Assembly: GCF_055900595.2 (NCBI RefSeq)
Contig: NZ_CM148325.1
Length of the DNA: 64,000 nucleotides
Strand: one strand, 5' to 3'
In this document: in pieces, positions 46,286-58,145 of the stretch
How positions within the stretch are numbered: position 1 is the stretch's first letter
Layout of the letters: the number at the start of each line of letters is the position of its first letter
The notes under the pieces: model-generated
Told to the model about the DNA's origin: nothing
The model's database searches: none
Seen by the model: the letters and a program-made list of their open reading frames with translations, nothing else
Translations under genes and position numbers: made by a program

Positions 46286-47176
46286 TTATTTCGTCTGGCT
46301 ACGGGCAAACAGGTCGTCGAGCTTTTCTTCGTACTGGTAGTAGTTAATGCTTTCATACAGCTCGTTGCGGGTCTGCATGGTGTCGATGACGCTTTTCTGC
46401 GTGCCTTCCTGGCGCAGGACGTTGTAGACATGTTCAGCGGCGCGGTTCATTGCGCGGAAAGCAGAAAGGGGATACAGCGCCATTGCGACATGGGCGCTGC
46501 GTAATTCGTCGGTGGTAAACAGCGGCGTGGCACCAAATTCAGTAATGTTGGCAAGGATCGGCACCTGCACCGCATCGGCAAACTGGCGGTACATGGCGAG
46601 TTCGGTAATTGCTTCCGGGAACAACATCTCGGCACCCGCTTCAACATAGGCCTGCGCACGCTCGATCGCCGCATCCAGCCCCTCTACCGCCAGCGCATCG
46701 GTGCGCGCCATGATCACAAAATCAGGATCGGTTTTCGCATCCACCGCCGCGCGGATCCGATCCACCATCTCTTCTTTCGAGACGATCGCTTTGTTCGGGC
46801 GATGACCGCAGCGTTTTGCTCCAACCTGATCTTCAATATGTAAGCCCGCCGCACCGGCTTTAATCATCGATTTCACGGTGCGGGCAACGTTAAAGGCCGA
46901 AGAGCCAAAACCGATATCCGCATCCACCAGCAGCGGCAGCGAGCAGACGTCGGTGATACGACGAATATCAGTCAACACATCATCAAGAGTAGAAATACCG
47001 AGATCCGGCAACCCCAGCGAACCTGCCGCCACACCACCGCCGGAGAGATAAATCGCCTGATATCCGGCACGCTGCGCCAGCAGCGCATGGTTGGCGTTAA
47101 TGGTGCCGACAATCTGCAATGGATTTTCTTTAGACAGTGCAGCGCGAAACGCTTTACCTGGAGAGTGTAGAGACAT
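46286..47176 (-). CDS. prpB: 2-methylisocitrate lyase
   Basis: 296 aa [28 protein letters not shown]... Confidence 0.93.
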
Positions 47177-47222
47177 AGCCCATCCTTTGTTATCAACTTG
47201 TTATTTACGTTGATAAACTCAA

Positions 47223-47238
47223 AGCAAGGGGTGTGCCA
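47223..47238 (-). promoter_or_regulatory. sigma54 promoter for prpBCDE: TGGCAC-ACCCC-TTGCT on the minus strand
   Basis: Perfect match to the -24/-12 consensus TGGCAC-N5-TTGCW, about 47 bp upstream of the prpB ATG. Confidence 0.8.
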
Positions 47239-47313
47239 CAATTACCTGGATGAAATTAAATGTTATATTTCAATTTGTTATAGATAAAGCCATGAAGTAA
47301 TCCGCAAATATGC

Positions 47314-47371
47314 GTTTCAGTTAACGTTTCAGGCAATGTTTCACTGCGTTTCATTGCAACAATTATGAAAC
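47314..47371. promoter_or_regulatory. Array of GTTTCA hexamers (four direct, one inverted as TGAAAC): candidate PrpR enhancer
   Basis: GTTTCA at about 47314, 47326, 47338, 47348 with 10-12 bp spacing and TGAAAC at 47366; sits 75-135 bp upstream of the sigma54 promoter. Confidence 0.4.
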
Positions 47372-47414
47372 AAGACTAAACCCAATATTCGGTTTCTTAA
47401 CTTTGCGGTGCGCT

Positions 47415-49001
47415 ATGGCACATCCACCACGGCTGAATGACGACAAACCGGTTATCTGGACGGTATCTGTAACGCGGCTGTTCGAGCTGTTTCGCGATAT
47501 CAGTCTCGAGTTTGATCACCTGGCGAATATCACCCCTATTCAGCTTGGCTTTGAAAAAGCGGTGACCTACATCCGCAAAAAACTGGCCAGCGAACGCTGC
47601 GACGCCATCATTGCCGCTGGCTCTAACGGTGCGTACCTGAAAAGCCGCCTGTCGGTACCGGTGATTCTGATAAAACCGAGTGGCTACGATGTGTTACAGG
47701 CGCTGGCAAAAGCCGGAAAACTCACCTCTTCTATCGGCGTTGTCACCTATCAGGAAACCATTCCGGCACTGGTAGCGTTTCAAAAAACCTTTAATTTGCG
47801 CCTCGACCAACGTAGCTACATTACCGAAGAAGACGCACGCGGGCAGATTAACGAGCTAAAAGCTAACGGCACCGAAGCGGTGGTCGGTGCGGGGCTGATT
47901 ACCGATCTGGCAGAAGAAGCCGGAATGACCGGAATTTTTATTTATTCCGCCGCCACCGTGCGCCAGGCGTTCAGCGATGCGCTGGATATGACGCGCATGT
48001 CGTTACGCCATAACACTCACGATGCCACCCGCAACGCCCTGCGTACTCGTTACGTGCTGGGCGATATGCTCGGTCAATCACCACAGATGGAACAGGTACG
48101 GCAGACTATTTTGCTGTATGCCCGCTCCAGTGCGGCGGTGTTGATTGAAGGGGAAACGGGGACGGGCAAAGAGCTGGCGGCCCAGGCGATTCATCGGGAA
48201 TATTTTGCCCGCCACGATGCGCGACAGGGCAAAAAGTCGCATCCGTTTGTTGCCGTCAACTGCGGGGCGATTGCTGAATCTCTGCTGGAAGCGGAGCTGT
48301 TTGGCTATGAGGAAGGAGCGTTTACCGGCTCGCGACGCGGAGGACGCGCCGGGCTGTTTGAAATCGCCCACGGTGGCACGCTGTTTCTTGACGAGATAGG
48401 CGAAATGCCGCTGCCGTTGCAGACCCGGCTACTGCGGGTGCTGGAAGAAAAAGAGGTCACTCGCGTCGGCGGGCATCAGCCTGTTCCGGTGGATGTGCGG
48501 GTTATTAGCGCCACTCACTGCAATCTCGAAGAGGATATGCAGCAAGGGCGTTTTCGCCGTGATCTGTTTTATCGACTGAGTATTTTGCGTCTGCAATTGC
48601 CGCCGCTACGCGAGCGGGTGGCGGATATTCTGCCGCTGGCGGAAAGCTTTTTGAAAGTGTCACTGGCGGCACTTACTGCGCCTTTTTCTTCCGCGTTACG
48701 TCAGGGATTACAGGCAAGTGAAACTGTGCTATTGCGCTACAACTGGCCGGGAAATATTCGTGAACTGCGCAATATGATGGAACGACTGGCGCTATTTTTA
48801 AGTGTGGAACCAACGCCGGATTTAACGCCGCAATTTTTGCAGTTGCTACTGCCGGAACTGGCGCGCGAGTCGGAGGAAACTCCCGCTCCACGTTTACTGA
48901 CGCCACAACAGGCACTGGAGAAATTTAATGGCGATAAAACTGCCGCGGCCAATTATTTAGGTATCAGCCGAACGACATTCTGGCGGCGGCTGAAAAACTG
49001 A
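47415..49001 (+). CDS. prpR: Sigma54-dependent transcriptional activator of the prp operon
   Basis: ORF 47403-49001; start set at [22 protein letters not shown]... giving 528 aa; AAA+ sigma54-interaction domain ([14 protein letters not shown]) and C-terminal HTH. Confidence 0.92.
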
Positions 49002-49004
49002 AAT

Positions 49005-49036
49005 GCCGAATCCAGCGCGAACGCCTTATCCGGCAT
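49005..49036. repeat. REP element between prpR and yahO
   Basis: GCCGAATCCAGCGCGAACGCCTTATCCGGCAT. Confidence 0.7.
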
Positions 49037-49098
49037 AAATTTCAATAGATGATCACCGATAAACTTACGCATCGGGCATGTTTACATGGGGTGCAGAA

Positions 49099-49374
49099 TT
49101 ATTTCTTCTTATAAATATTTGCCGTGCCGTGGATCTTATTGTCAGTTTGACCAGAGGTCAGCACCAACACATCTGCCCCTTTTTCATCCGCTTTTTTGAT
49201 CAGATCTTCTTTCGCATCTGCAGTCGACATTTCATTACTGGTTGAAATATCACCTATTTTTTCGTACTGCGATGCAACTTTTTCAAATTCCGCTTTGGTC
49301 ATTAATTCTGCGGCATAAACGTTGGTAACGGCAAACGCTAACGCACCGATTAACATTTTAGAGATTATTTTCAT
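49099..49374 (-). CDS. yahO: DUF1471-family periplasmic protein
   Basis: 91 aa with signal peptide [21 protein letters not shown]. Confidence 0.85.
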
Positions 49375-49558
49375 ATTACGGCTCCAGAGTTGTTATCAAA
49401 CTATCACCCACCCATATTATTGGGTTGATTAATAATTAGTTCAGTCAGGGCATAAACGCCAGTAACCGGAAATAAGACACTTTGTGATCTCTCTCGCATC
49501 CGATTACTTTTTGTAGAAATATGATGAAGTTACTTCACTTATTTATGGATCAAATCAC

Positions 49559-50191
49559 ATGGATCCCTTGCACGCCGTTTACCTGACCGTAGGACTGTTC
49601 GTGATGACTTTTTTTAATCCGGGAGCCAATCTTTTTGTGGTGGTACAAACCAGCCTGGCTTCCGGTCGACGCGCAGGAGTGCTGACCGGGTTGGGCGTGG
49701 CACTGGGCGATGCGTTTTATTCCGGGTTGGGTTTGTATGGTCTTGCGACACTCATTACGCAGTGTGAGGAGATTTTTTCGCTTATCAGAATCGTAGGCGG
49801 CGCTTATCTCTTATGGTTTGCGTGGTGCAGCATGCGCCGCCAGTCAACACCGCAAATAAGCACACTACAACAACCGATTAGCGCCCCCTGGTATGTCTTT
49901 TTTCGCCGTGGATTAATTACCGATCTCTCTAATCCACAGACCGTTTTATTTTTTATCAGTATTTTCTCAGTAACGTTAAATGCTGAAACACCAACTTGGG
50001 CACGTTTAATGGCCTGGACGGGAATTGTGTTCGCATCAATTATCTGGCGAGTCTTTCTTAGTCAGGCGTTTTCTTTGCCCGCTGTGCGTCGTGCTTATGG
50101 GCGTATGCAACGCGTTGCCAGTCGGGTTATTGGTGCAATTATTGGTGTATTCGCGCTACGCCTGATTTACGAAGGAGTAACACAGCGGTGA
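49559..50191 (+). CDS. yahN: LysE/RhtB-family amino-acid exporter
   Basis: 210 aa polytopic protein MDPLHAVYLTVGLFVMTFFNPGANLFVVVQTSLA... Confidence 0.85.
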   Translation: MDPLHAVYLTVGLFVMTFFNPGANLFVVVQTSLASGRRAGVLTGLGVALGDAFYSGLGLYGLATLITQCEEIFSLIRIVGGAYLLWFAWCSMRRQSTPQISTLQQPISAPWYVFFRRGLITDLSNPQTVLFFISIFSVTLNAETPTWARLMAWTGIVFASIIWRVFLSQAFSLPAVRRAYGRMQRVASRVIGAIIGVFALRLIYEGVTQR

Positions 50192-50316
50192 GCAGATAAT
50201 TTACTCTCTACGTAATCAACCTGATTTGCCGAATCCCGCTCATCGGCGATGATACCCCCCGTAATGCGTGGTCCTTATTTCCGATAAGTTTACTTGAGTC
50301 TTTAGCTTCCCATTTC

Positions 50317-50346
50317 AGCCCACTCTCCCCTGTGTGGGCTTTTTTC
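50317..50346 (+). terminator. Rho-independent terminator-like hairpin AGCCCAC-N10-GTGGGCT followed by TTTTTT
   Basis: 7-bp GC-rich stem plus T6 run on the plus strand, about 125 bp after the yahN stop. Confidence 0.5.
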
Positions 50347-50417
50347 ATTTGTCTGCTTCAGTGAGTAGCTGGCCATGCTCCATCCACTCTGCAAGGATGA
50401 TAATAAGAGGATCTGAT

Positions 50418-50600
50418 TCAGAAGAGTTTTGAAAAATTGGACCGCCATCGAGGCCTCGAACCCCGTACCATACAACAATCCTGGTTGTCGTCTGCTCTTC
50501 CTGATGAGCTAATGGCGGTTTGTGATATGAGCCTTACAGCATATTGTCTGTCAGGCTTGAGTGCGATGCGTAAGATACAGAAAAGACCCCACACAAACAT
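50418..50600 (-). CDS. Hypothetical small protein (60 aa) in a low-GC intergenic stretch
   Basis: Track ORF only; no recognisable motif; may correspond to the yahM position or be spurious. Confidence 0.2.
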   Translation of the reverse strand: MFVWGLFCILRIALKPDRQYAVRLISQTAISSSGRADDNQDCCMVRGSRPRWRSNFSKLF

Positions 50601-50820
50601 GATGGAATTATGATTTTTTTCATATGAATGTCAACCAACACATTCATAAAACACTCGCACAAGTTCACTTTTTAAGCAACATGACGCCGATCACAACAAA
50701 ATATCGGCGAAAAAGGAGGGTAAATGCCATTTGACGTAGAGATAAGCAGATGAAATGATTACCCGCTTTGCGATTCACTCTCTGATGGAATAACAAATTG
50801 GAGATGGAAAAGTTTCTAAA

Positions 50821-51636
50821 CTAAAGAGTGTAGCGTATTTTAACGTGCTTATTTACAGGATAATATTTGTCACCTAATTCCTGCACTCTATTAGATACCC
50901 ATTGATTTAATCGTGCATCATCTCTGTATGTTTTCACGTTCAGAACGGAGAGCAATAACATCACTAGCGATTCAGGAAAAACAGGGTAAATATTTTTTAA
51001 GTGCAATAATAATTCATACGCAAGCGCCTGCTTAATAGGTGCGTCTGCATCCGGAATGCGCGACATTTCGCGAAGCCATTTTTCTACATGCTCACATTCT
51101 TTCCCTTCACGGAAAAGTCTCAACAAAGGCATATGGTGCTCAAGAAGAATGCATTTGCAATCTGTTCGTACTGAATCGATAAACTGCACTAATTTCTTAA
51201 GTCCGGTGAAGCGTCCGGCATGGATATTCTCTTTAATATCAAGAAACACGTCATCCTGATCATATACCCAAACGGTCCCTTTTTGATTTTCAAGTATCCG
51301 AAAAACAAACTTAATCGGGTAATCAGGGTAATCCACCCAGTCATAAACTCCAGGGAAATCATTAAACTGCACATTTATGGTAAGCGCATTGTCGGCTGCC
51401 CACTCGCAATCTCGTACGGCAGCCATGAGATAAATGAGTTTATCATCATCGACTAAATCATCACGACAATCATAAGGATAATCATAGTATTGTTTAATCA
51501 AAACCTTGAATATATCGACACAAGAAACCAGTGTACTTCTGATATCTTCAGGTAACTGATTGTTTTTAAACGTATTGTGTACGCTTTGTTTCGTATATAG
51601 CAACAAATTATTGTGCGGCGCTTTTAATGGTATCAT
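50821..51636 (-). CDS. yahL: Uncharacterised protein YahL
   Basis: 271 aa ORF in an AT-rich stretch; no domain recognised by eye; synteny between yahN and yahK. Confidence 0.75.
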   Translation of the reverse strand: MIPLKAPHNNLLLYTKQSVHNTFKNNQLPEDIRSTLVSCVDIFKVLIKQYYDYPYDCRDDLVDDDKLIYLMAAVRDCEWAADNALTINVQFNDFPGVYDWVDYPDYPIKFVFRILENQKGTVWVYDQDDVFLDIKENIHAGRFTGLKKLVQFIDSVRTDCKCILLEHHMPLLRLFREGKECEHVEKWLREMSRIPDADAPIKQALAYELLLHLKNIYPVFPESLVMLLLSVLNVKTYRDDARLNQWVSNRVQELGDKYYPVNKHVKIRYTL

Positions 51637-51805
51637 TGCGATCTCTCTTAAATAAAAATAAACGTCGCAGATAATAAAGCCCTGATTAAACCAGGCACTA
51701 TCAGAAATCGCTCATAACTAACGAGTGAAGTATTGTGTACTGGAGGGAGTTATTTTAACAATTTGAATTTACGTTATAGGTTTTACCGCTACTTTGATAT
51801 TATTT

Positions 51806-51839
51806 CGCTCTCCTTAACTAAAAAGTTAAGTGGAGAGCG
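51806..51839 (-). terminator. Hairpin CGCTCTCCTTAACT-AAAAA-GTTAAG-TGGAGAGCG downstream of yahK
   Basis: About 13-bp imperfect stem, 40 bp 3' of the yahK stop on the minus strand. Confidence 0.4.
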
Positions 51840-51878
51840 AAGTTAATATGTTAAACCACAGGGTATTTATTAATTGTT

Positions 51879-52928
51879 TCAGTCTGTTAGTGTGCGATTA
51901 TCGATAACAAAACGATATTTCACATCTCCTCGCAGCATTCGCTCATAGGCTTCATTAATTTGATCGGCCCGAATCATCTCTATATCAGCCACGATGCCAT
52001 GTTCGGCGCAAAAATCGAGCATCTCCTGTGTTTCTGGAATGCCGCCAATCATAGAGCCGGCTATCGCGCGGCGTTTCATGATCAGGTTGAAAACTTCCGG
52101 CGATTTATGCGGTGTCGCAGGCGCACCAACCAGCGTCATGGTGCCATCGCGCTTCAGCAAGGTGGTAAAATCGTCGAGATTATGTGGCGCAGCTACGGTA
52201 TTCAAAATGAAATCGAAACTCTTCACATGAGCCGCCATCTCATCGGCATTGCGCGAGTTAACAACTTCATCGGCCCCAAGGGCTTTTGCCGCTTCGCGTT
52301 TTGACTCAGACGTGGTAAACGCCACTACATGCGCCCCCATCGAGTGGGCCAGCTTTATCCCCATATGCCCCAGACCGCCAATGCCGACCACTCCCACTTT
52401 TTTACCCGGCCCGGCCTGCCAGTGACGCAGCGGCGAGTACGTGGTGATCCCTGCACACAATAAAGGCGCCACCGCCGCCAGTTGCGCTTGCGGGTGACGA
52501 ATACGCAGAACATATCGCTCGTGAACGACAATCTGTTGTGAGTAGCCGCCCAGCGTATGGCCCGGTTCGTCCGGCGTCGGCGAGTTATAGGTGCCGGTCA
52601 TGTGATCACAGTAGTTTTCCAGCCCGTCTTCACACTCTTCGCAATGTTTACAACTGTCGACAATGCAGCCGACACCGACCAGATCGCCCGGCGCATATTT
52701 TTCTACCTGATCACCAACGGCTACCACGCGCCCTACAATTTCATGGCCCGGCACGCAGGGATAAACCGTCCCCGCCCACTCGGAACGGACCTGGTGGATA
52801 TCGGAATGGCAGACGCCACAGTAAGCGATTTCAATTTTGACATCATGCGGTCCCGGTTCACGCCGGGTAATATCCATCGGTTCCAGCGGTTGTTTAGCGG
52901 AATATGCACCAACAGCTTTGATCTTCAT
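51879..52928 (-). CDS. yahK: Zinc-dependent NADPH aldehyde reductase
   Basis: 349 aa MKIKAVGAYSAKQPLEPMDITRREPGPHDVKIEIAYCGVCHSD... with GHEIVG zinc-ADH motifs. Confidence 0.9.
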   Translation of the reverse strand: MKIKAVGAYSAKQPLEPMDITRREPGPHDVKIEIAYCGVCHSDIHQVRSEWAGTVYPCVPGHEIVGRVVAVGDQVEKYAPGDLVGVGCIVDSCKHCEECEDGLENYCDHMTGTYNSPTPDEPGHTLGGYSQQIVVHERYVLRIRHPQAQLAAVAPLLCAGITTYSPLRHWQAGPGKKVGVVGIGGLGHMGIKLAHSMGAHVVAFTTSESKREAAKALGADEVVNSRNADEMAAHVKSFDFILNTVAAPHNLDDFTTLLKRDGTMTLVGAPATPHKSPEVFNLIMKRRAIAGSMIGGIPETQEMLDFCAEHGIVADIEMIRADQINEAYERMLRGDVKYRFVIDNRTLTD

Positions 52929-56464: not shown

Positions 56465-57451
56465 TTAATAAAGTGAGTCAATATTGTCTTTGTTGACCAG
56501 TAATACCTTATGGAAACGGATAATTCGCTTATCCATATCTACGTCGGCCTTACCGAGATTCTCCATTTCTAATCCAGGTTTGATCTCTTCACCCTTCAGC
56601 AACGTGCTGGCGACGGCCGCGAGTGCGTAACCTGCAGAGGCCGGATCGTAAGTAATCCCTTCGGTGATATCACCACTTTTAATCAATGATGCCGCCTGTG
56701 AAGGGATCATCATGCCATAGACTGCGACTTTATTTTTCGCCCGTTTCTCTTTCACCGCACGTCCCGCGCCAATCGGACCGTTTGAACCAAAGGAGACAAC
56801 CGCTTTCAAGTCAGGATAGGTTTTCATCAGGTCCAGTGTGGTACGACGTGAGTCATCCACACTCTCGGCAACCGGCATGCGGCGGGTAACTTCATGCATA
56901 TCCGGGTAATGCTCTTTCTGGTATTTCACCAGCAAGTCAGCCCATAAGTTATGCTGCGGCACGGTCAAACTACCCACATAAATCACATAGCCGCCCTTGC
57001 CACCCATGCGTTTCGCCATATGTTCAACATATTCAGCGGCAAATTTTTCGTTATCAATGATTTCGATATCCCAGTTAGCACTTGGCTGACCGGGGGATTC
57101 GTTGGTCAGAACCACAATTCCGGCATCTCGCGCTTTTTTGAATACCGGTTCTAGCACGTTGGCATCGTTTGGCACGATAGTAATTGCGTTAACCTTACGA
57201 GCGATTAAATCCTCAATAATTTTAACCTGTTGCGGAGCATCAGTACTTGAAGGTCCCACCTGTGACGCATTAACCCCAAAGGCTTTACCTGCCTCGACCA
57301 CACCTTCGCCCATGCGATTAAACCACGGCATACCATCGACTTTAGAGATATTCACCACGACTTTTTCCGCTGCCTGGAGCGGCGAGGAAATTAGCGCAGC
57401 GCCTAATAACAGCGAAGACACCATATTGATAACAAAACGTTTATTCATCAT
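56465..57451 (-). CDS. Periplasmic sugar-binding protein (CUT2 family)
   Basis: 328 aa with signal peptide MMNKRFVINMVSSLLLGAALISSPLQA. Confidence 0.8.
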   Translation of the reverse strand: MMNKRFVINMVSSLLLGAALISSPLQAAEKVVVNISKVDGMPWFNRMGEGVVEAGKAFGVNASQVGPSSTDAPQQVKIIEDLIARKVNAITIVPNDANVLEPVFKKARDAGIVVLTNESPGQPSANWDIEIIDNEKFAAEYVEHMAKRMGGKGGYVIYVGSLTVPQHNLWADLLVKYQKEHYPDMHEVTRRMPVAESVDDSRRTTLDLMKTYPDLKAVVSFGSNGPIGAGRAVKEKRAKNKVAVYGMMIPSQAASLIKSGDITEGITYDPASAGYALAAVASTLLKGEEIKPGLEMENLGKADVDMDKRIIRFHKVLLVNKDNIDSLY

Positions 57452-57701
57452 TTCAGCCTCATTGCAGGGTAGTCAGGAAGTGTTCGCCCAAATTAGCGCG
57501 CTGGAGAGAATAAGAATTTTCGAATATTTTTATGCAGAATAAACAGCCCTATTTCAGGCAGCTATTAAAAATTTGGTTATAAATATGGACAAAACGGGCA
57601 GTAACAATAAGTGTGACAATCATCACGTAAAAAATAGCAAAATAAACAAAATTAGCGATACTTTATGTTTATGAGCTTATTTCGCGTAGAAAAATAGTTA
57701 T

Positions 57702-58145
57702 CTACACAATGTCAATAAGGGCATATTCTTCAAAGATAACGTCCATTTCGGGTGAATAGCATCCTTCTGCCTGGAAAAAACGACGGTGTTCATTACGCCA
57801 ATATTCAAGACTGAGGTCACCTTCACCTTCCTTACGGGCAAGCTCCGCGGTGACATCAGAAAAGCGCAGTAAATGCAGGCCAATAACTCTGATAACACAT
57901 ACAGGCTCACCACGGCTATTTTCTACAATCTTATACTCACCAATCATCGGAAATGCGTTGTCTTCAATACATCCCGCCAGCGAACCACAGGAAGCTGTTT
58001 TAACACCAGTCGCAATCAACGTTGCGAGGTGATCGGCCAACGCTTCTGAATCGCCAAAAGTACAAAAGGAAGCATGGGGATATTTTTGTGAGATTTTTTC
58101 TTTTATGGTCATGAGAATATTTTCGCGATTACGGAAAAAAATCAC
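57702..58145 (-). CDS. ASCH-domain (PUA-like) protein
   Basis: 147 aa; GVKTASCG and EYWRNEHRRFF resemble ASCH-domain motifs; start may be MTIKEK at 58112. Confidence 0.5.
   Translation of the reverse strand: MIFFRNRENILMTIKEKISQKYPHASFCTFGDSEALADHLATLIATGVKTASCGSLAGCIEDNAFPMIGEYKIVENSRGEPVCVIRVIGLHLLRFSDVTAELARKEGEGDLSLEYWRNEHRRFFQAEGCYSPEMDVIFEEYALIDIV

Follow-up and report, generated by a model that had tools for sequence, protein, structure and literature searches.

A probable phage-derived tRNA-like gene with its own promoter beside yahN, and a later AT-rich insertion carrying yahL, in Escherichia

The region between yahN and yahK of Escherichia probably consists of two unrelated elements, a phage-derived tRNA-like gene with its own promoter and an AT-rich insertion that carries yahL and arrived later. 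An initial annotation of this DNA had described an unexplained region containing an 8-bp inverted repeat (ACCGCCAT at 50441-50448 and ATGGCGGT at 50512-50519) that brackets a 10-bp palindrome (CGAGGCCTCG at 50449-50458). All three sequences are exact. They make up the acceptor stem and the T arm of a tRNA-like gene 81 nt in length, which is conserved and apparently phage-derived.

We analyzed this locus within a 64-kb stretch of DNA, referred to here as the window, whose overall GC content is 52.5%. In 400-nt windows between 50400 and 52000, GC falls to 0.35-0.42, compared with 0.52-0.59 for yahK and its upstream genes, which agrees with the first impression that this stretch is AT-rich relative to its neighbors. 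The AT-rich islet has a GC content of 37.7% and yahL 38.4%, against 54.0% for yahK and 49.4% for yahN. Positions 50192-50651 are only mildly low (44.3%), and within them the 81-nt tRNA-like segment reaches 56.8%. The features discussed below are as follows.

49559-50191, plus strand: yahN, a LysE-family amino-acid exporter gene and the convergent neighbor of the tRNA-like gene in every lineage
50208-50448, minus strand: the 'yahM' frame, frameshifted in the window strain, with its ATG within the 3' acceptor strand of the tRNA-like gene
50318-50345, plus strand: yahN intrinsic-terminator-like hairpin (stem 50318-50339, TTTTTT 50340-50345)
50418-50600, minus strand: 60-aa ORF, a spurious translation of leader and tRNA-like sequence (from the ORF list and the overlap)
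50438-50518, minus strand: tRNA-like gene, 81 nt, with C1 at 50518 and the encoded CCA ending at 50438 (from ARAGORN, fold, homology and conservation)
50519-50600, minus strand: leader, 82 nt, with the transcription start at about 50600 and first bases ATGTTTGTGTGGGG
50607-50634, minus strand: sigma-70 promoter, TTGACA-16-CATAAT, 11 of 12 consensus positions (from a promoter scan)
50652-51869, no strand: AT-rich islet with approximate boundaries (from BLAST against E1V33, E. albertii and yahL-less E. coli)
50821-51636, minus strand: yahL, an 816-nt ORF of 271 aa, intact in three lineages
51807-51839, minus strand: terminator-like hairpin downstream of yahK, read from the sequence

Fold and conservation of the tRNA-like gene

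ARAGORN assigns a tRNA-Ser(GGA) to 50438-50518, its sole tRNA-type call in the window, and a cloverleaf is the minimum-free-energy fold of the 81 nt both alone and inside the 301-nt transcript; the centroid fold is also a cloverleaf. The elements of a canonical tRNA cloverleaf are present, namely a 7-bp acceptor stem, a D arm (4-bp stem, 8-nt loop) carrying G18 and G19, and a T-arm loop, UUCGAGG, that conforms to UUCRA. The variable region is 6 nt long, and U8, A14 and an encoded CCA can be read from the sequence alongside the two D-loop guanines.

The third arm is where the gene departs from a tRNA. In the minimum-free-energy fold, a 7-bp stem with the 6-nt loop CCAGGA (ACGACAA-CCAGGA-UUGUUGU; the sequence given as a probe to this arm is GACGACAACCAGGAUUGUUGU) replaces the anticodon arm, and the RNA therefore cannot decode. 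The gene lacks the combination of a 5-bp anticodon stem, a 7-nt loop with U33 and a readable anticodon. The alternative 7-nt loop of the ARAGORN call (CAGGAUU, in the register as we interpret it) places A instead of U before the anticodon and requires five unpaired nucleotides between the D and anticodon stems. Searches with 2.7-kb and 106-nt queries returned no match to the Rfam tRNA model RF00005 (gathering threshold 29 bits) at E <= 10, and among other Rfam families the only match was a chance, terminator-like one to a Betaproteobacteria toxic sRNA, at 20 bits against a threshold of 50.

Across K-12, the window strain, CP057162, CP056642, E1V33 and E. albertii, 0 of the 81 columns of the tRNA-like gene vary, compared with 30 of the 82 columns of the adjoining leader in the same six lineages (Fisher p = 7e-11). 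At the leader's rate of variation, the probability of 81 unvaried columns is about 1e-16, and the synonymous divergence (dS) of the flanking genes reaches 0.6-0.7. Of 5170 E. coli records, 4821 have the 81-nt sequence unchanged, and one substitution, T68C, which converts a G.U pair of the T stem to G-C, accounts for 301 of the 348 variant records. The pattern suggests that the 81-nt sequence is under purifying selection. Being otherwise invariant, the chromosomal copies yield no covariation among themselves, and support for the structure comes from the single G.U-to-G-C change of O157 and from comparison with the phage relatives.

In all six lineages the tRNA-like gene faces the 3' end of yahN, and its upstream neighbor changes, being yahK, yahJ or an SNF2 helicase gene. 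The order in E1V33 is yahK, 287 bp, tRNA-like gene and yahN, with the yahL islet missing, and in CP056642 a distance of 42 nt separates the end of the tRNA-like gene from the stop codon of yahN. Because it sits beside yahN with differing upstream neighbors, the tRNA-like gene is independent of yahL. It is missing from Citrobacter and S. bongori, where the 3' flank of yahN is just 56-79 bp, and about 5% of E. coli genomes are without it. IS1 interrupts the gene in one strain and the reduced-genome strain DGF-298 has it deleted; the gene is dispensable in the laboratory.

Relationship to phage tRNA genes

A BLAST search of a 2.3-Gb database aligns the tRNA-like gene with a copy in phiP27 at E = 1e-18 and 83.9% identity, and the gene is 86.8% identical to the 'tRNA-OTHER' of pHX138. 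Identity is 84-87% to the middle gene of the ileZ-argN-argO clusters located downstream of Q in phiP27, mEp460, TL-2011c and PhiR49_2 and to a plasmid-borne copy, and homology to the argN family is significant across the whole tRNA body. These similarities indicate that the tRNA-like gene is of phage origin, homologous to the middle (argN-position) tRNA of lambdoid/Stx-phage clusters.

In lambdoid and Stx phages, the cluster that contains argN lies between the Q antiterminator gene or a DNA methylase gene and the stx or lysis genes. The chromosomal gene agrees with argN in its acceptor stem (CCGCCAT/ATGGCGG), its discriminator U and encoded CCA, and its D stem and T arm, and it also has an 8-nt upstream spacer in common with the phiP27- and pHX138-type copies. 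Canonical argN, however, is a 77-nt tRNA-Arg(UCG) that scores 56.2 bits on RF00005, whereas the chromosomal copy is 81 nt long, does not match that model and carries a 7-bp stem and 6-nt loop in place of the anticodon arm. It is also solitary, possesses a promoter of its own and has become fixed in the chromosome of Escherichia: its neighbors are chromosomal genes, and it does not lie downstream of Q with a CAU-anticodon tRNA on one side and another tRNA (argO, or tRNA-Gly/Thr in IMG/VR clusters) on the other. We also asked whether the leader derives from a decayed ileZ and the sequence downstream from a decayed argO, and rejected this, as local alignments scored no better than those of shuffled sequence (p = 0.26-0.97).

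The closest relatives are phage genes annotated as 'tRNA-???', with 8-nt D loops, GAGGCC T loops and 6-nt loops. Genes annotated in this way or as 'tRNA-OTHER' in IMG/VR clusters and in Yersinia phage YeP1 have the 8-nt D loop GGAAGAGC and the T loop UUCGAGG with GAGGCC, and the 3' strand of their third arm, GUUGU, is common to the chromosomal gene. Their anticodon loop is likewise nonstandard, with 6 nt in the IMG/VR copies and 7 nt without U33 in YeP1. They differ in that tRNA-Met/Ile(CAU) and tRNA-Gly/Arg genes flank them at a distance of 2-3 nt and in that their third arm is highly variable, whereas the chromosomal copy is isolated and invariant. Our literature search on ileZ/argN/argO and non-canonical phage tRNAs found nothing useful, and a search of IMG/VR yielded no phage copy from which the chromosomal third arm could have come.

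An argN-type tRNA of the lambdoid/Stx-phage kind probably settled beside the 3' end of yahN early in the ancestry of Escherichia, once this lineage had separated from those of Salmonella and Citrobacter. The settled copy would have retained the L-shape and the features of a tRNA-enzyme substrate, comprising the acceptor stem, U8, A14, G18/G19, UUCGA, CCA and an AU-rich 3' trailer. A tRNA shape without decoding is familiar from the thrS-leader tRNA-like operator of E. coli, tRNA-Other of Bacillus cereus and the tRNA-like domain of tmRNA, and such non-decoding mimics may be recognized by tRNA-binding proteins or processing enzymes. To our knowledge, the chromosomal element has no sequence relationship to the thrS operator, tRNA-Other or tmRNA.

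An alternative is that the element is simply a dead phage tRNA pseudogene, its identity across lineages arising from chance, a mutational cold spot or a DNA-level role as an attachment or protein-binding site. We regard this as quite improbable. The anticodon arm is destroyed, the Rfam tRNA model fails, the element is dispensable, and the related phage copies resemble decaying tRNAs with hypervariable third arms, all of which a pseudogene would explain; decay does not, however, account for the contrast in variable sites with the adjoining leader, for a sole common polymorphism (T68C) that keeps the structure, or for a promoter that is conserved too. Sequence just 3' of the element is replaced in several lineages, as at tRNA-linked integration sites, but no integrase, direct repeats or island is present at the 3' end in the genomes examined. 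Gene conversion from phage copies is excluded as the cause of the identity, because the third arm is not found in IMG/VR.

The transcript, the yahM reading frame and possible modes of action

The sigma-70 promoter is identical in K-12, CP057162, E1V33 and CP056642 and slightly changed in E. albertii. The Reg-Seq preprint reports that the yahM promoter is active and repressed by IHF and confirms the transcription start, and we found no yahM content in the Reg-Seq supplement. The cloning primer for the yahM '5' UTR' of Adams et al. 2021 begins exactly at the start sequence, ATGTTTGTG. The consensus fold of the leader comprises two predicted hairpins with one compensatory pair.

The gene annotated on this transcript, yahM, is most likely not protein-coding, and its annotation is most likely mistaken. 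From the yahM ATG, the ORF extends for 81 aa in K-12, 48 in the window strain, 11 in both O157:H7 and CP057162, 31 in E. albertii and 17 in E1V33; the E. albertii and E1V33 ORFs are unrelated in sequence to K-12 YahM, and CP056642 has no room for the frame. It is broken in five of six lineages, is intact only in K-12-type E. coli and is not preserved across the lineages that share the locus. RefSeq records yahM as a frameshifted pseudogene in a 99.9%-identical strain. A 60-aa ORF that the initial annotation had considered doubtful is present, and we judge it spurious, as its codons are read from the leader and the tRNA-like sequence.

It is extremely unlikely that yahM is nevertheless a true small-protein gene, with the tRNA-like fold incidental or regulatory in its 5' UTR and start region. 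Most E. coli genomes carry the annotation 'protein YahM', and the transcript is induced in several transcriptome studies; against this, the 81-aa ORF is limited to K-12-type strains, its middle varies the most and has indels whose lengths are not multiples of three, and its conserved ends are accounted for by the tRNA-like gene and the yahN terminator. A GAGG motif precedes the ATG by 7 nt, but both are buried in the acceptor and T stems of the predicted fold. No protein family match was found in Pfam, PHROGs, NCBIfam or PADLOC. The data of Adams et al. 2021 place a Rho termination region inside the yahM ORF (score 6.2, p = 3e-33), and Rho termination within an ORF is typical of untranslated RNA.

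On the opposite strand, the hairpin at 50318-50345 is the predicted terminator of yahN. A strong hairpin past yahN had been pointed out at the outset; it reads GCCCAC-N10-GTGGGC followed by T6 and begins 127 nt beyond the yahN stop codon. Its 6-7-bp stem, with five G-C pairs, and the T6 tract are those of an intrinsic terminator, which our terminator scan missed because of the 10-nt loop. The hairpin is kept in K-12, CP057162 and E. albertii and missing in CP056642, and published data contain no experimental 3' end that we could find for yahN.

Inside the tRNA-like element, published Term-seq data place a single 3' end, at MG1655 345390 (about 4300 reads), which corresponds to G57 on the 5' side of the T stem; the published lists include none at the CCA (345414) and none at the RNase P site (345333, position -1). 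These data fit an element that acts purely in cis, as a structured leader or attenuator in which folding, or the binding of a tRNA-recognizing protein, selects between premature Rho termination and read-through that collides with or runs antisense to yahN, with no free tRNA-like RNA produced. We consider this possible but doubtful. The dominant end at G57 falls in a significant Rho region (Rho score 1.85), with a strong Rho region 170 nt downstream, and the convergent pair yahM-yahN has been catalogued as an excludon, seen in at least 50% of the RNA-seq samples of MG1655. The yahN-facing position has also stayed constant in six lineages while the upstream neighbor and intervening sequence were replaced, although the convergent layout may be merely the ancestral insertion site of an immobile 200-bp element. 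An attenuator, moreover, needs no encoded CCA, G18/G19, UUCGA T loop or invariance at 81 positions, features that fit recognition by tRNA enzymes, and yahM RNA has been recovered from a small-RNA-enriched library.

We infer the processing of the RNA, the identity of its mature species and its mode of action as follows. A transcript initiated at the IHF-repressed sigma-70 promoter would contain, in order, the leader, the tRNA-like sequence and an untranslated tail, which Rho would end before an antisense run into yahN, and the selected product would be the RNA, not the YahM protein. Acting in trans, a tRNA mimic freed by RNase P and 3' trimming may target a tRNA-binding factor; candidates that it would bind or titrate are synthetases, enzymes that modify or process tRNA, and toxins directed against tRNA. 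Acting in cis, the tRNA-shaped leader would set the amount of transcription that reads on toward yahN. We put forward, tentatively, that a phage tRNA has become, in Escherichia, a dedicated regulatory RNA that is tRNA-shaped but does not decode and that even in K-12 is concealed by the yahM annotation; it may be either a trans mimic or a tRNA-shaped sensor gating Rho-dependent read-through to yahN. The direct basis of this scheme is the sequence, its fold potential, homology, conservation and genomic contexts and the decay of yahM, with promoter activity and Rho termination taken from the literature.

The AT-rich islet and yahL

The AT-rich islet appears to be a later insertion, separate from the tRNA-like gene, that carries yahL; about 1.2 kb of AT-rich DNA would have arrived between yahK and the promoter of the tRNA-like gene. 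The initial annotation had proposed horizontal acquisition of the islet as a whole. This holds for the AT-rich yahL stretch, which is absent from E1V33, E. albertii and CP056642, but not for 50192-50820, which appears to be older than yahL, is separate from the islet and is not mere spacer. A tRNA-linked genomic island was considered and rejected, since the islet lies 5' of the element's promoter and not at its 3' end, contains only yahL and has no integrase. For the hairpin at 51807-51839, downstream of yahK, MG1655 Term-seq records a 3' end, 344013(+), whose hairpin context is the same.

The yahL gene appears to be a genuine, fast-evolving and dispensable orphan protein gene restricted to Escherichia. 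As first reported, the 271-aa product has no recognizable domain: nothing exceeds threshold in Pfam, PHROGs, NCBIfam or PADLOC, and there is no significant profile or structural match to a characterized family or defense system. Over three lineages, the 816 nt contain no indels and show dN/dS of 0.17-0.20 at dS of 0.31-0.67, as expected of coding sequence. YahL versions are 77-87% identical in divergent Escherichia lineages, and no homologues were found outside Escherichia among 5.8 billion clusters and 1.84 billion representatives, a taxonomic distribution that bears out the orphan status originally suggested. Rare strains of E. coli carry, elsewhere in the genome, a lone paralogue that is 26% identical.

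Most of the query finds no match in about 1160 of 5178 E. coli records (roughly one in five), which is consistent with loss of yahL. In one inspected yahL-less strain, positions 50808-51642 are cleanly absent, which is exactly the yahL ORF, and no repeat was seen at the deletion junction. YahL has been listed with YdjO and YjfZ among the Escherichia-specific 'conserved signature proteins' (PMC11057252). Our searches agree in finding homologues only in E. coli/Shigella and close relatives, but YahL is not universal, as about one fifth of complete E. coli genomes match no more than half the query. Its use as a universal E. coli marker is tempered by the apparent lack of yahL in these genomes.

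K-12 has the best-annotated bacterial genome, yet this locus is still represented by two uncharacterized 'y' genes. Under the name yahM, the object of study would shift from an 81-aa protein to a tRNA-shaped RNA of apparent phage origin, frozen at every one of its 81 positions throughout the genus, and the published promoter, Term-seq and Rho data for yahM gain a new reading. The locus may offer an experimentally accessible case of host takeover of a phage tRNA, and it draws attention to phage 'tRNAs' whose anticodon loops are 6 nt long, a class that has gone unstudied.

The tRNA-like element and its conservation

This part of the window corresponds to the prpR-yahO-yahN-(yahM)-yahL-yahK region of the Escherichia chromosome in reverse orientation, with the following features:

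47403-49001 (+), prpR
49099-49374 (-), yahO
49559-50191 (+), yahN
50438-50518 (-), tRNA-like element
50519-50600 (-), leader of the element
50821-51636 (-), yahL
51879-52928 (-), yahK

A sequence check found every feature described in the initial annotation where it had been placed, including the hairpin beyond yahN (GCCCAC-N10-GTGGGC, 50318-50339 (+), followed by T6, 127 nt past the yahN stop codon), the exact inverted repeat ACCGCCAT (50441-50448) / ATGGCGGT (50512-50519) and the exact palindrome CGAGGCCTCG (50449-50458). The minus strand here encodes a tRNA-shaped gene whose acceptor stem and T arm account for the repeat and palindrome. ARAGORN places a tRNA at 50438-50518 (-), its sole such call within the 64 kb, and the cloverleaf is both the minimum-free-energy and the centroid fold and is retained when a 301-nt transcript is folded. 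In this fold the acceptor stem has 7 bp, the D stem 4 bp (8-nt loop) and the third arm 7 bp (6-nt loop, CCAGGA); a 6-nt variable region precedes the T arm, whose loop reads UUCGAGG, and the gene encodes its own CCA after discriminator U. The third arm lacks the 7-nt loop bearing U33, and a 106-nt query gave no match to Rfam RF00005 even at E <= 10; the element is not a canonical tRNA.

All 81 nt are the same in the six lineages compared (K-12, the window strain, CP057162, CP056642, Escherichia sp. E1V33 and E. albertii NBRC 107761). The 82-nt leader differs from K-12 at 2 positions in the window, 10 in CP057162, 13 in CP056642, 16 in E1V33 and 12 in E. albertii, giving 30/82 variable columns versus 0/81 in the tRNA-like body (Fisher p = 7e-11). 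The element is identical in CP057162 even though YahL there is only 77% identical; synonymous divergence between K-12 and CP057162 in neighbouring genes runs from 0.41 (yahO) to 0.72, with yahK and yahN at ~0.62-0.72. Sequence 3' of the CCA is unalignable among E. coli, E. albertii and E1V33, and the distance from the CCA to the yahN stop codon is only 42 nt in CP056642. The element is present in 5168 of 5426 complete E. coli genomes, and 4821 of 5170 E. coli records match at 81/81 nt. T68C alone, typical of O157:H7, accounts for 301 of the 348 variant records and converts the T-stem pair G56.U68 to G-C. Such a level of identity is expected of a functional tRNA gene, and the pattern is consistent with purifying selection on the entire RNA. 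One strain, E. coli DETEC-S792 (NZ_CP116067; contig L020, 2501-2562), carries an IS1 insertion in the T loop; it also lacks yahL, making it a natural double knockout usable for phenotyping.

Age and phage relatives of the element

The element always faces the yahN 3' end, with an upstream neighbour that differs by lineage. E. coli and close lineages have yahL there, E1V33 has yahK, E. albertii has yahJ, and CP056642 has a gene for an SNF2-family helicase. At the Citrobacter and Salmonella bongori loci no tRNA-like gene follows yahN, and the next gene starts after 79 and 56 bp, respectively. From these contexts, the element arrived in an early Escherichia ancestor; it is older than, and independent of, yahL.

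A megablast search returned a 'tRNA-OTHER' gene, 86.8% identical, on an E. coli plasmid, flanked by tRNA-Ile and tRNA-Arg genes, and blastn against phage genomes (E = 1e-18) found homologues in phiP27, mEp460, TL-2011c, PhiR49_2, Evi and Yersinia phages YeP1-3. At the five loci inspected, the homologue lies in a tRNA cluster downstream of the Q antiterminator/methylase gene and upstream of stx/lysis genes; E. coli phages carry it as the cluster's middle gene. The gene of PhiR49_2 is a canonical tRNA-Arg(UCG) of 77 nt with an RF00005 score of 56 bits; that of TL-2011c reads Pro(UGG), and those of phiP27, pHX138 and mEp460 have an aberrant anticodon arm. On the plasmid and in PhiR49_2, the sRNA STnc100 (Rfam RF02076, 140-154 bits) lies directly downstream of the cluster (contigs L003 5571-5777 and L007 3252-3451); isrC and sok also occur on the plasmid.

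Two IMG/VR scans showed canonical Arg(UCG) to be the majority of phage copies. A subfamily with an 8-nt D loop, a GAGGCC T loop and a 6-nt 'anticodon' loop, labelled 'tRNA-???' with 2-nt anticodons by ARAGORN and wedged between tRNA-Met/Ile(CAU) and tRNA-Gly/Arg genes, is nearest to the chromosomal copy. On several IMG/VR contigs these genes are 75-78 nt long and each lies 2-3 nt from tRNA-Met/Ile(CAU) and tRNA-Gly/Arg/Thr genes; the commonest sequence occurs on at least 11 contigs, and loop variants include CAUUAA, CAUCAA, CUCGCU and CUCAAU. Copies include:

L145, 4400-4474, tRNA-???
L149, 5518-5592, tRNA-???
L142, 1693-1767, tRNA-???
L081, 1194-1271, tRNA-???
L052, 12356-12433, tRNA-???

Family-wide, conservation covers the acceptor, D and T arms, and the third arm is hypervariable; a search of IMG/VR for the chromosomal third arm found none. 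No significant similarity to ileZ or argO was detected on either side of the chromosomal copy. The recognisably phage-derived part is the tRNA-like body only, together with a common 8-nt upstream spacer.

yahL and the AT-rich islet

The initial annotation's view of this stretch as AT-rich is borne out, with GC of 0.35-0.42 over 50400-52000 versus 0.52-0.59 in the flanks. Exact values are 37.7% for 50652-51869, 38.4% for yahL, 54.0% for yahK, 49.4% for yahN and 52.5% for the whole window; 50192-50651 is at 44.3% and the 81-nt tRNA-like segment at 56.8%. Further low-GC stretches lie at 47000-47600 ahead of prpR (0.43-0.44), around yahO at 49000-49600 (0.39-0.41) and near 57400-57800 (0.36).

Compared with E1V33, the window has additional sequence at ~50652-51869. 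A yahL-less E. coli strain is missing exactly 50808-51642, the ORF and a few adjacent bases; no repeat is evident at the junction. In addition, ~1160 of 5178 matching records span only half of the query. Across three lineages yahL keeps its 816 nt with no indels at a dN/dS of 0.17-0.20 (versus 0.00-0.07 for yahK, yahN and yahO); it is a real gene. Its description as an orphan also stands: no match was found in Pfam, PHROGs, NCBIfam, PADLOC or PDB sequences, and homologues occur in Escherichia only, in agreement with its publication as an E. coli/Shigella signature protein. When 1.84 billion representatives were searched exhaustively with HMMER, the hits were YahL's own fragments and one 26%-identical protein, nothing else. 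This relative (L018 6001-6828, GCA_009799345.1; E = 1e-11) is encoded by rare E. coli strains at another locus, with a DUF2686 (YjfZ-like) gene and an invasin/intimin-like gene of 1350 aa beside it; YjfZ has itself been published as an E. coli-specific signature protein and is of similar size.

YahL is a dispensable, fast-evolving, taxonomically restricted protein encoded in AT-rich DNA. The suggested horizontal acquisition holds in part: the yahL-bearing DNA is probably foreign, but the tRNA-like stretch is older and separate from it.

The 150 nt from the yahL stop codon to the promoter of the element are the most divergent of the region (22-85% identity in 60-nt windows), and the window lacks ~40 bases (AAAAAAGCACCAGTAGTGGTTTCGCAGCCATGCGGTGTA...) that K-12 and CP057162 carry in this interval (~50660-50670; alignment A1, columns 258-297). 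Downstream of yahK, a long hairpin at 51807-51839 (-) (CGCTCTCCACTTAAC...GTTAAGGAGAGCG) lies where published Term-seq data place an MG1655 3' end, 344013(+); at this spot E1V33 carries another hairpin, whose CGCTCTC/GAGAGCG stem is similar.

Transcription, yahM and proposed role

A near-consensus sigma-70 promoter, TTGACA-16-CATAAT (50634-50607 (-)), lies upstream of the element, with no change in four other lineages and only a slight one in E. albertii. A Reg-Seq preprint reports the yahM promoter as active and IHF-repressed, and the yahM '5' UTR' cloned by Adams et al. 2021 (PMC7815308) begins ATGTTTGTGTGGGG, placing its start at window 50600, 7 nt past the -10 hexamer. Their Term-seq data place a 3' end at MG1655 345390 (~4300 reads; Rho score 1.85, flagged significant; intrinsic-terminator score 1.3), 14 nt ahead of the yahM ATG at G57 in the T stem, and a strong Rho termination region at 345585 within 'yahM' (score 6.2, p = 3e-33). 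The published Term-seq lists give no 3' end at the CCA or at position -1. The yahM-yahN pair is listed as a convergent excludon, and 'yahM' is among the differentially expressed RNAs of a small-RNA-enriched library. We therefore conclude that the RNA is made, that a good fraction of transcripts spans the whole element and that Rho stops the RNA before yahN; a mature 81-nt species is putative. The main text of PMC7815308 also names 'yhaM' among fusions up >2-fold in rhoR66S, and its plasmid table (supplementary file 4) lists a yahM (5' UTR + ORF) construct; the two names may be a typographical swap, in which case Rho termination within yahM is experimentally confirmed.

The yahM ATG begins at the first base of AUGGCGG, the 3' acceptor strand, and the GAGG that looks like its Shine-Dalgarno sequence belongs to the T loop. 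The ORF has 81 aa in K-12, 48 in the window (frameshifted) and 11 in both O157:H7 and CP057162, and from the same ATG runs into unrelated sequence for 31 aa in E. albertii and 17 in E1V33; RefSeq flags yahM as frameshifted in a near-identical strain. The middle of the ORF belongs to the most divergent sequence of the region, with indels, and its ends are conserved because the tRNA-like gene and the yahN 3' UTR/terminator occupy them. Rho termination within the ORF is a further point against its translation. We conclude that yahM is a mis-annotation. The doubtful 60-aa ORF (50418-50600) likewise falls away as a gene, consisting of leader and tRNA-like sequence.

The data show an RNA element that is shaped like a tRNA, derives from a phage, is transcribed independently and is under strong constraint; its mode of action is inferred. 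It retains all features required for a tRNA L shape and for being recognised by RNase P, 3' trimming enzymes and T-loop modifiers, perhaps also by EF-Tu or a synthetase, and has no decoding loop; we therefore favour a non-decoding tRNA mimic. That the mimic is a processed, trans-acting RNA is a tentative reading, against which the 3' end at G57 and the missing CCA end are the chief data. Both would fit a cis-acting, tRNA-shaped leader controlling Rho-dependent read-through toward yahN, which we think somewhat less likely; the encoded CCA, the tertiary-interaction nucleotides and the 81/81 invariance are the chief data against a simple attenuator. Our remaining belief goes to other roles or to none.

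RefSeq annotates only a CDS at the element, and no paper found in our literature search describes the locus as carrying a tRNA-like gene. Phage tRNAs are known to have given rise to tRNA-like RNAs; what is new is a solitary, genus-wide, invariant and non-decoding copy lying under a K-12 'y' gene.
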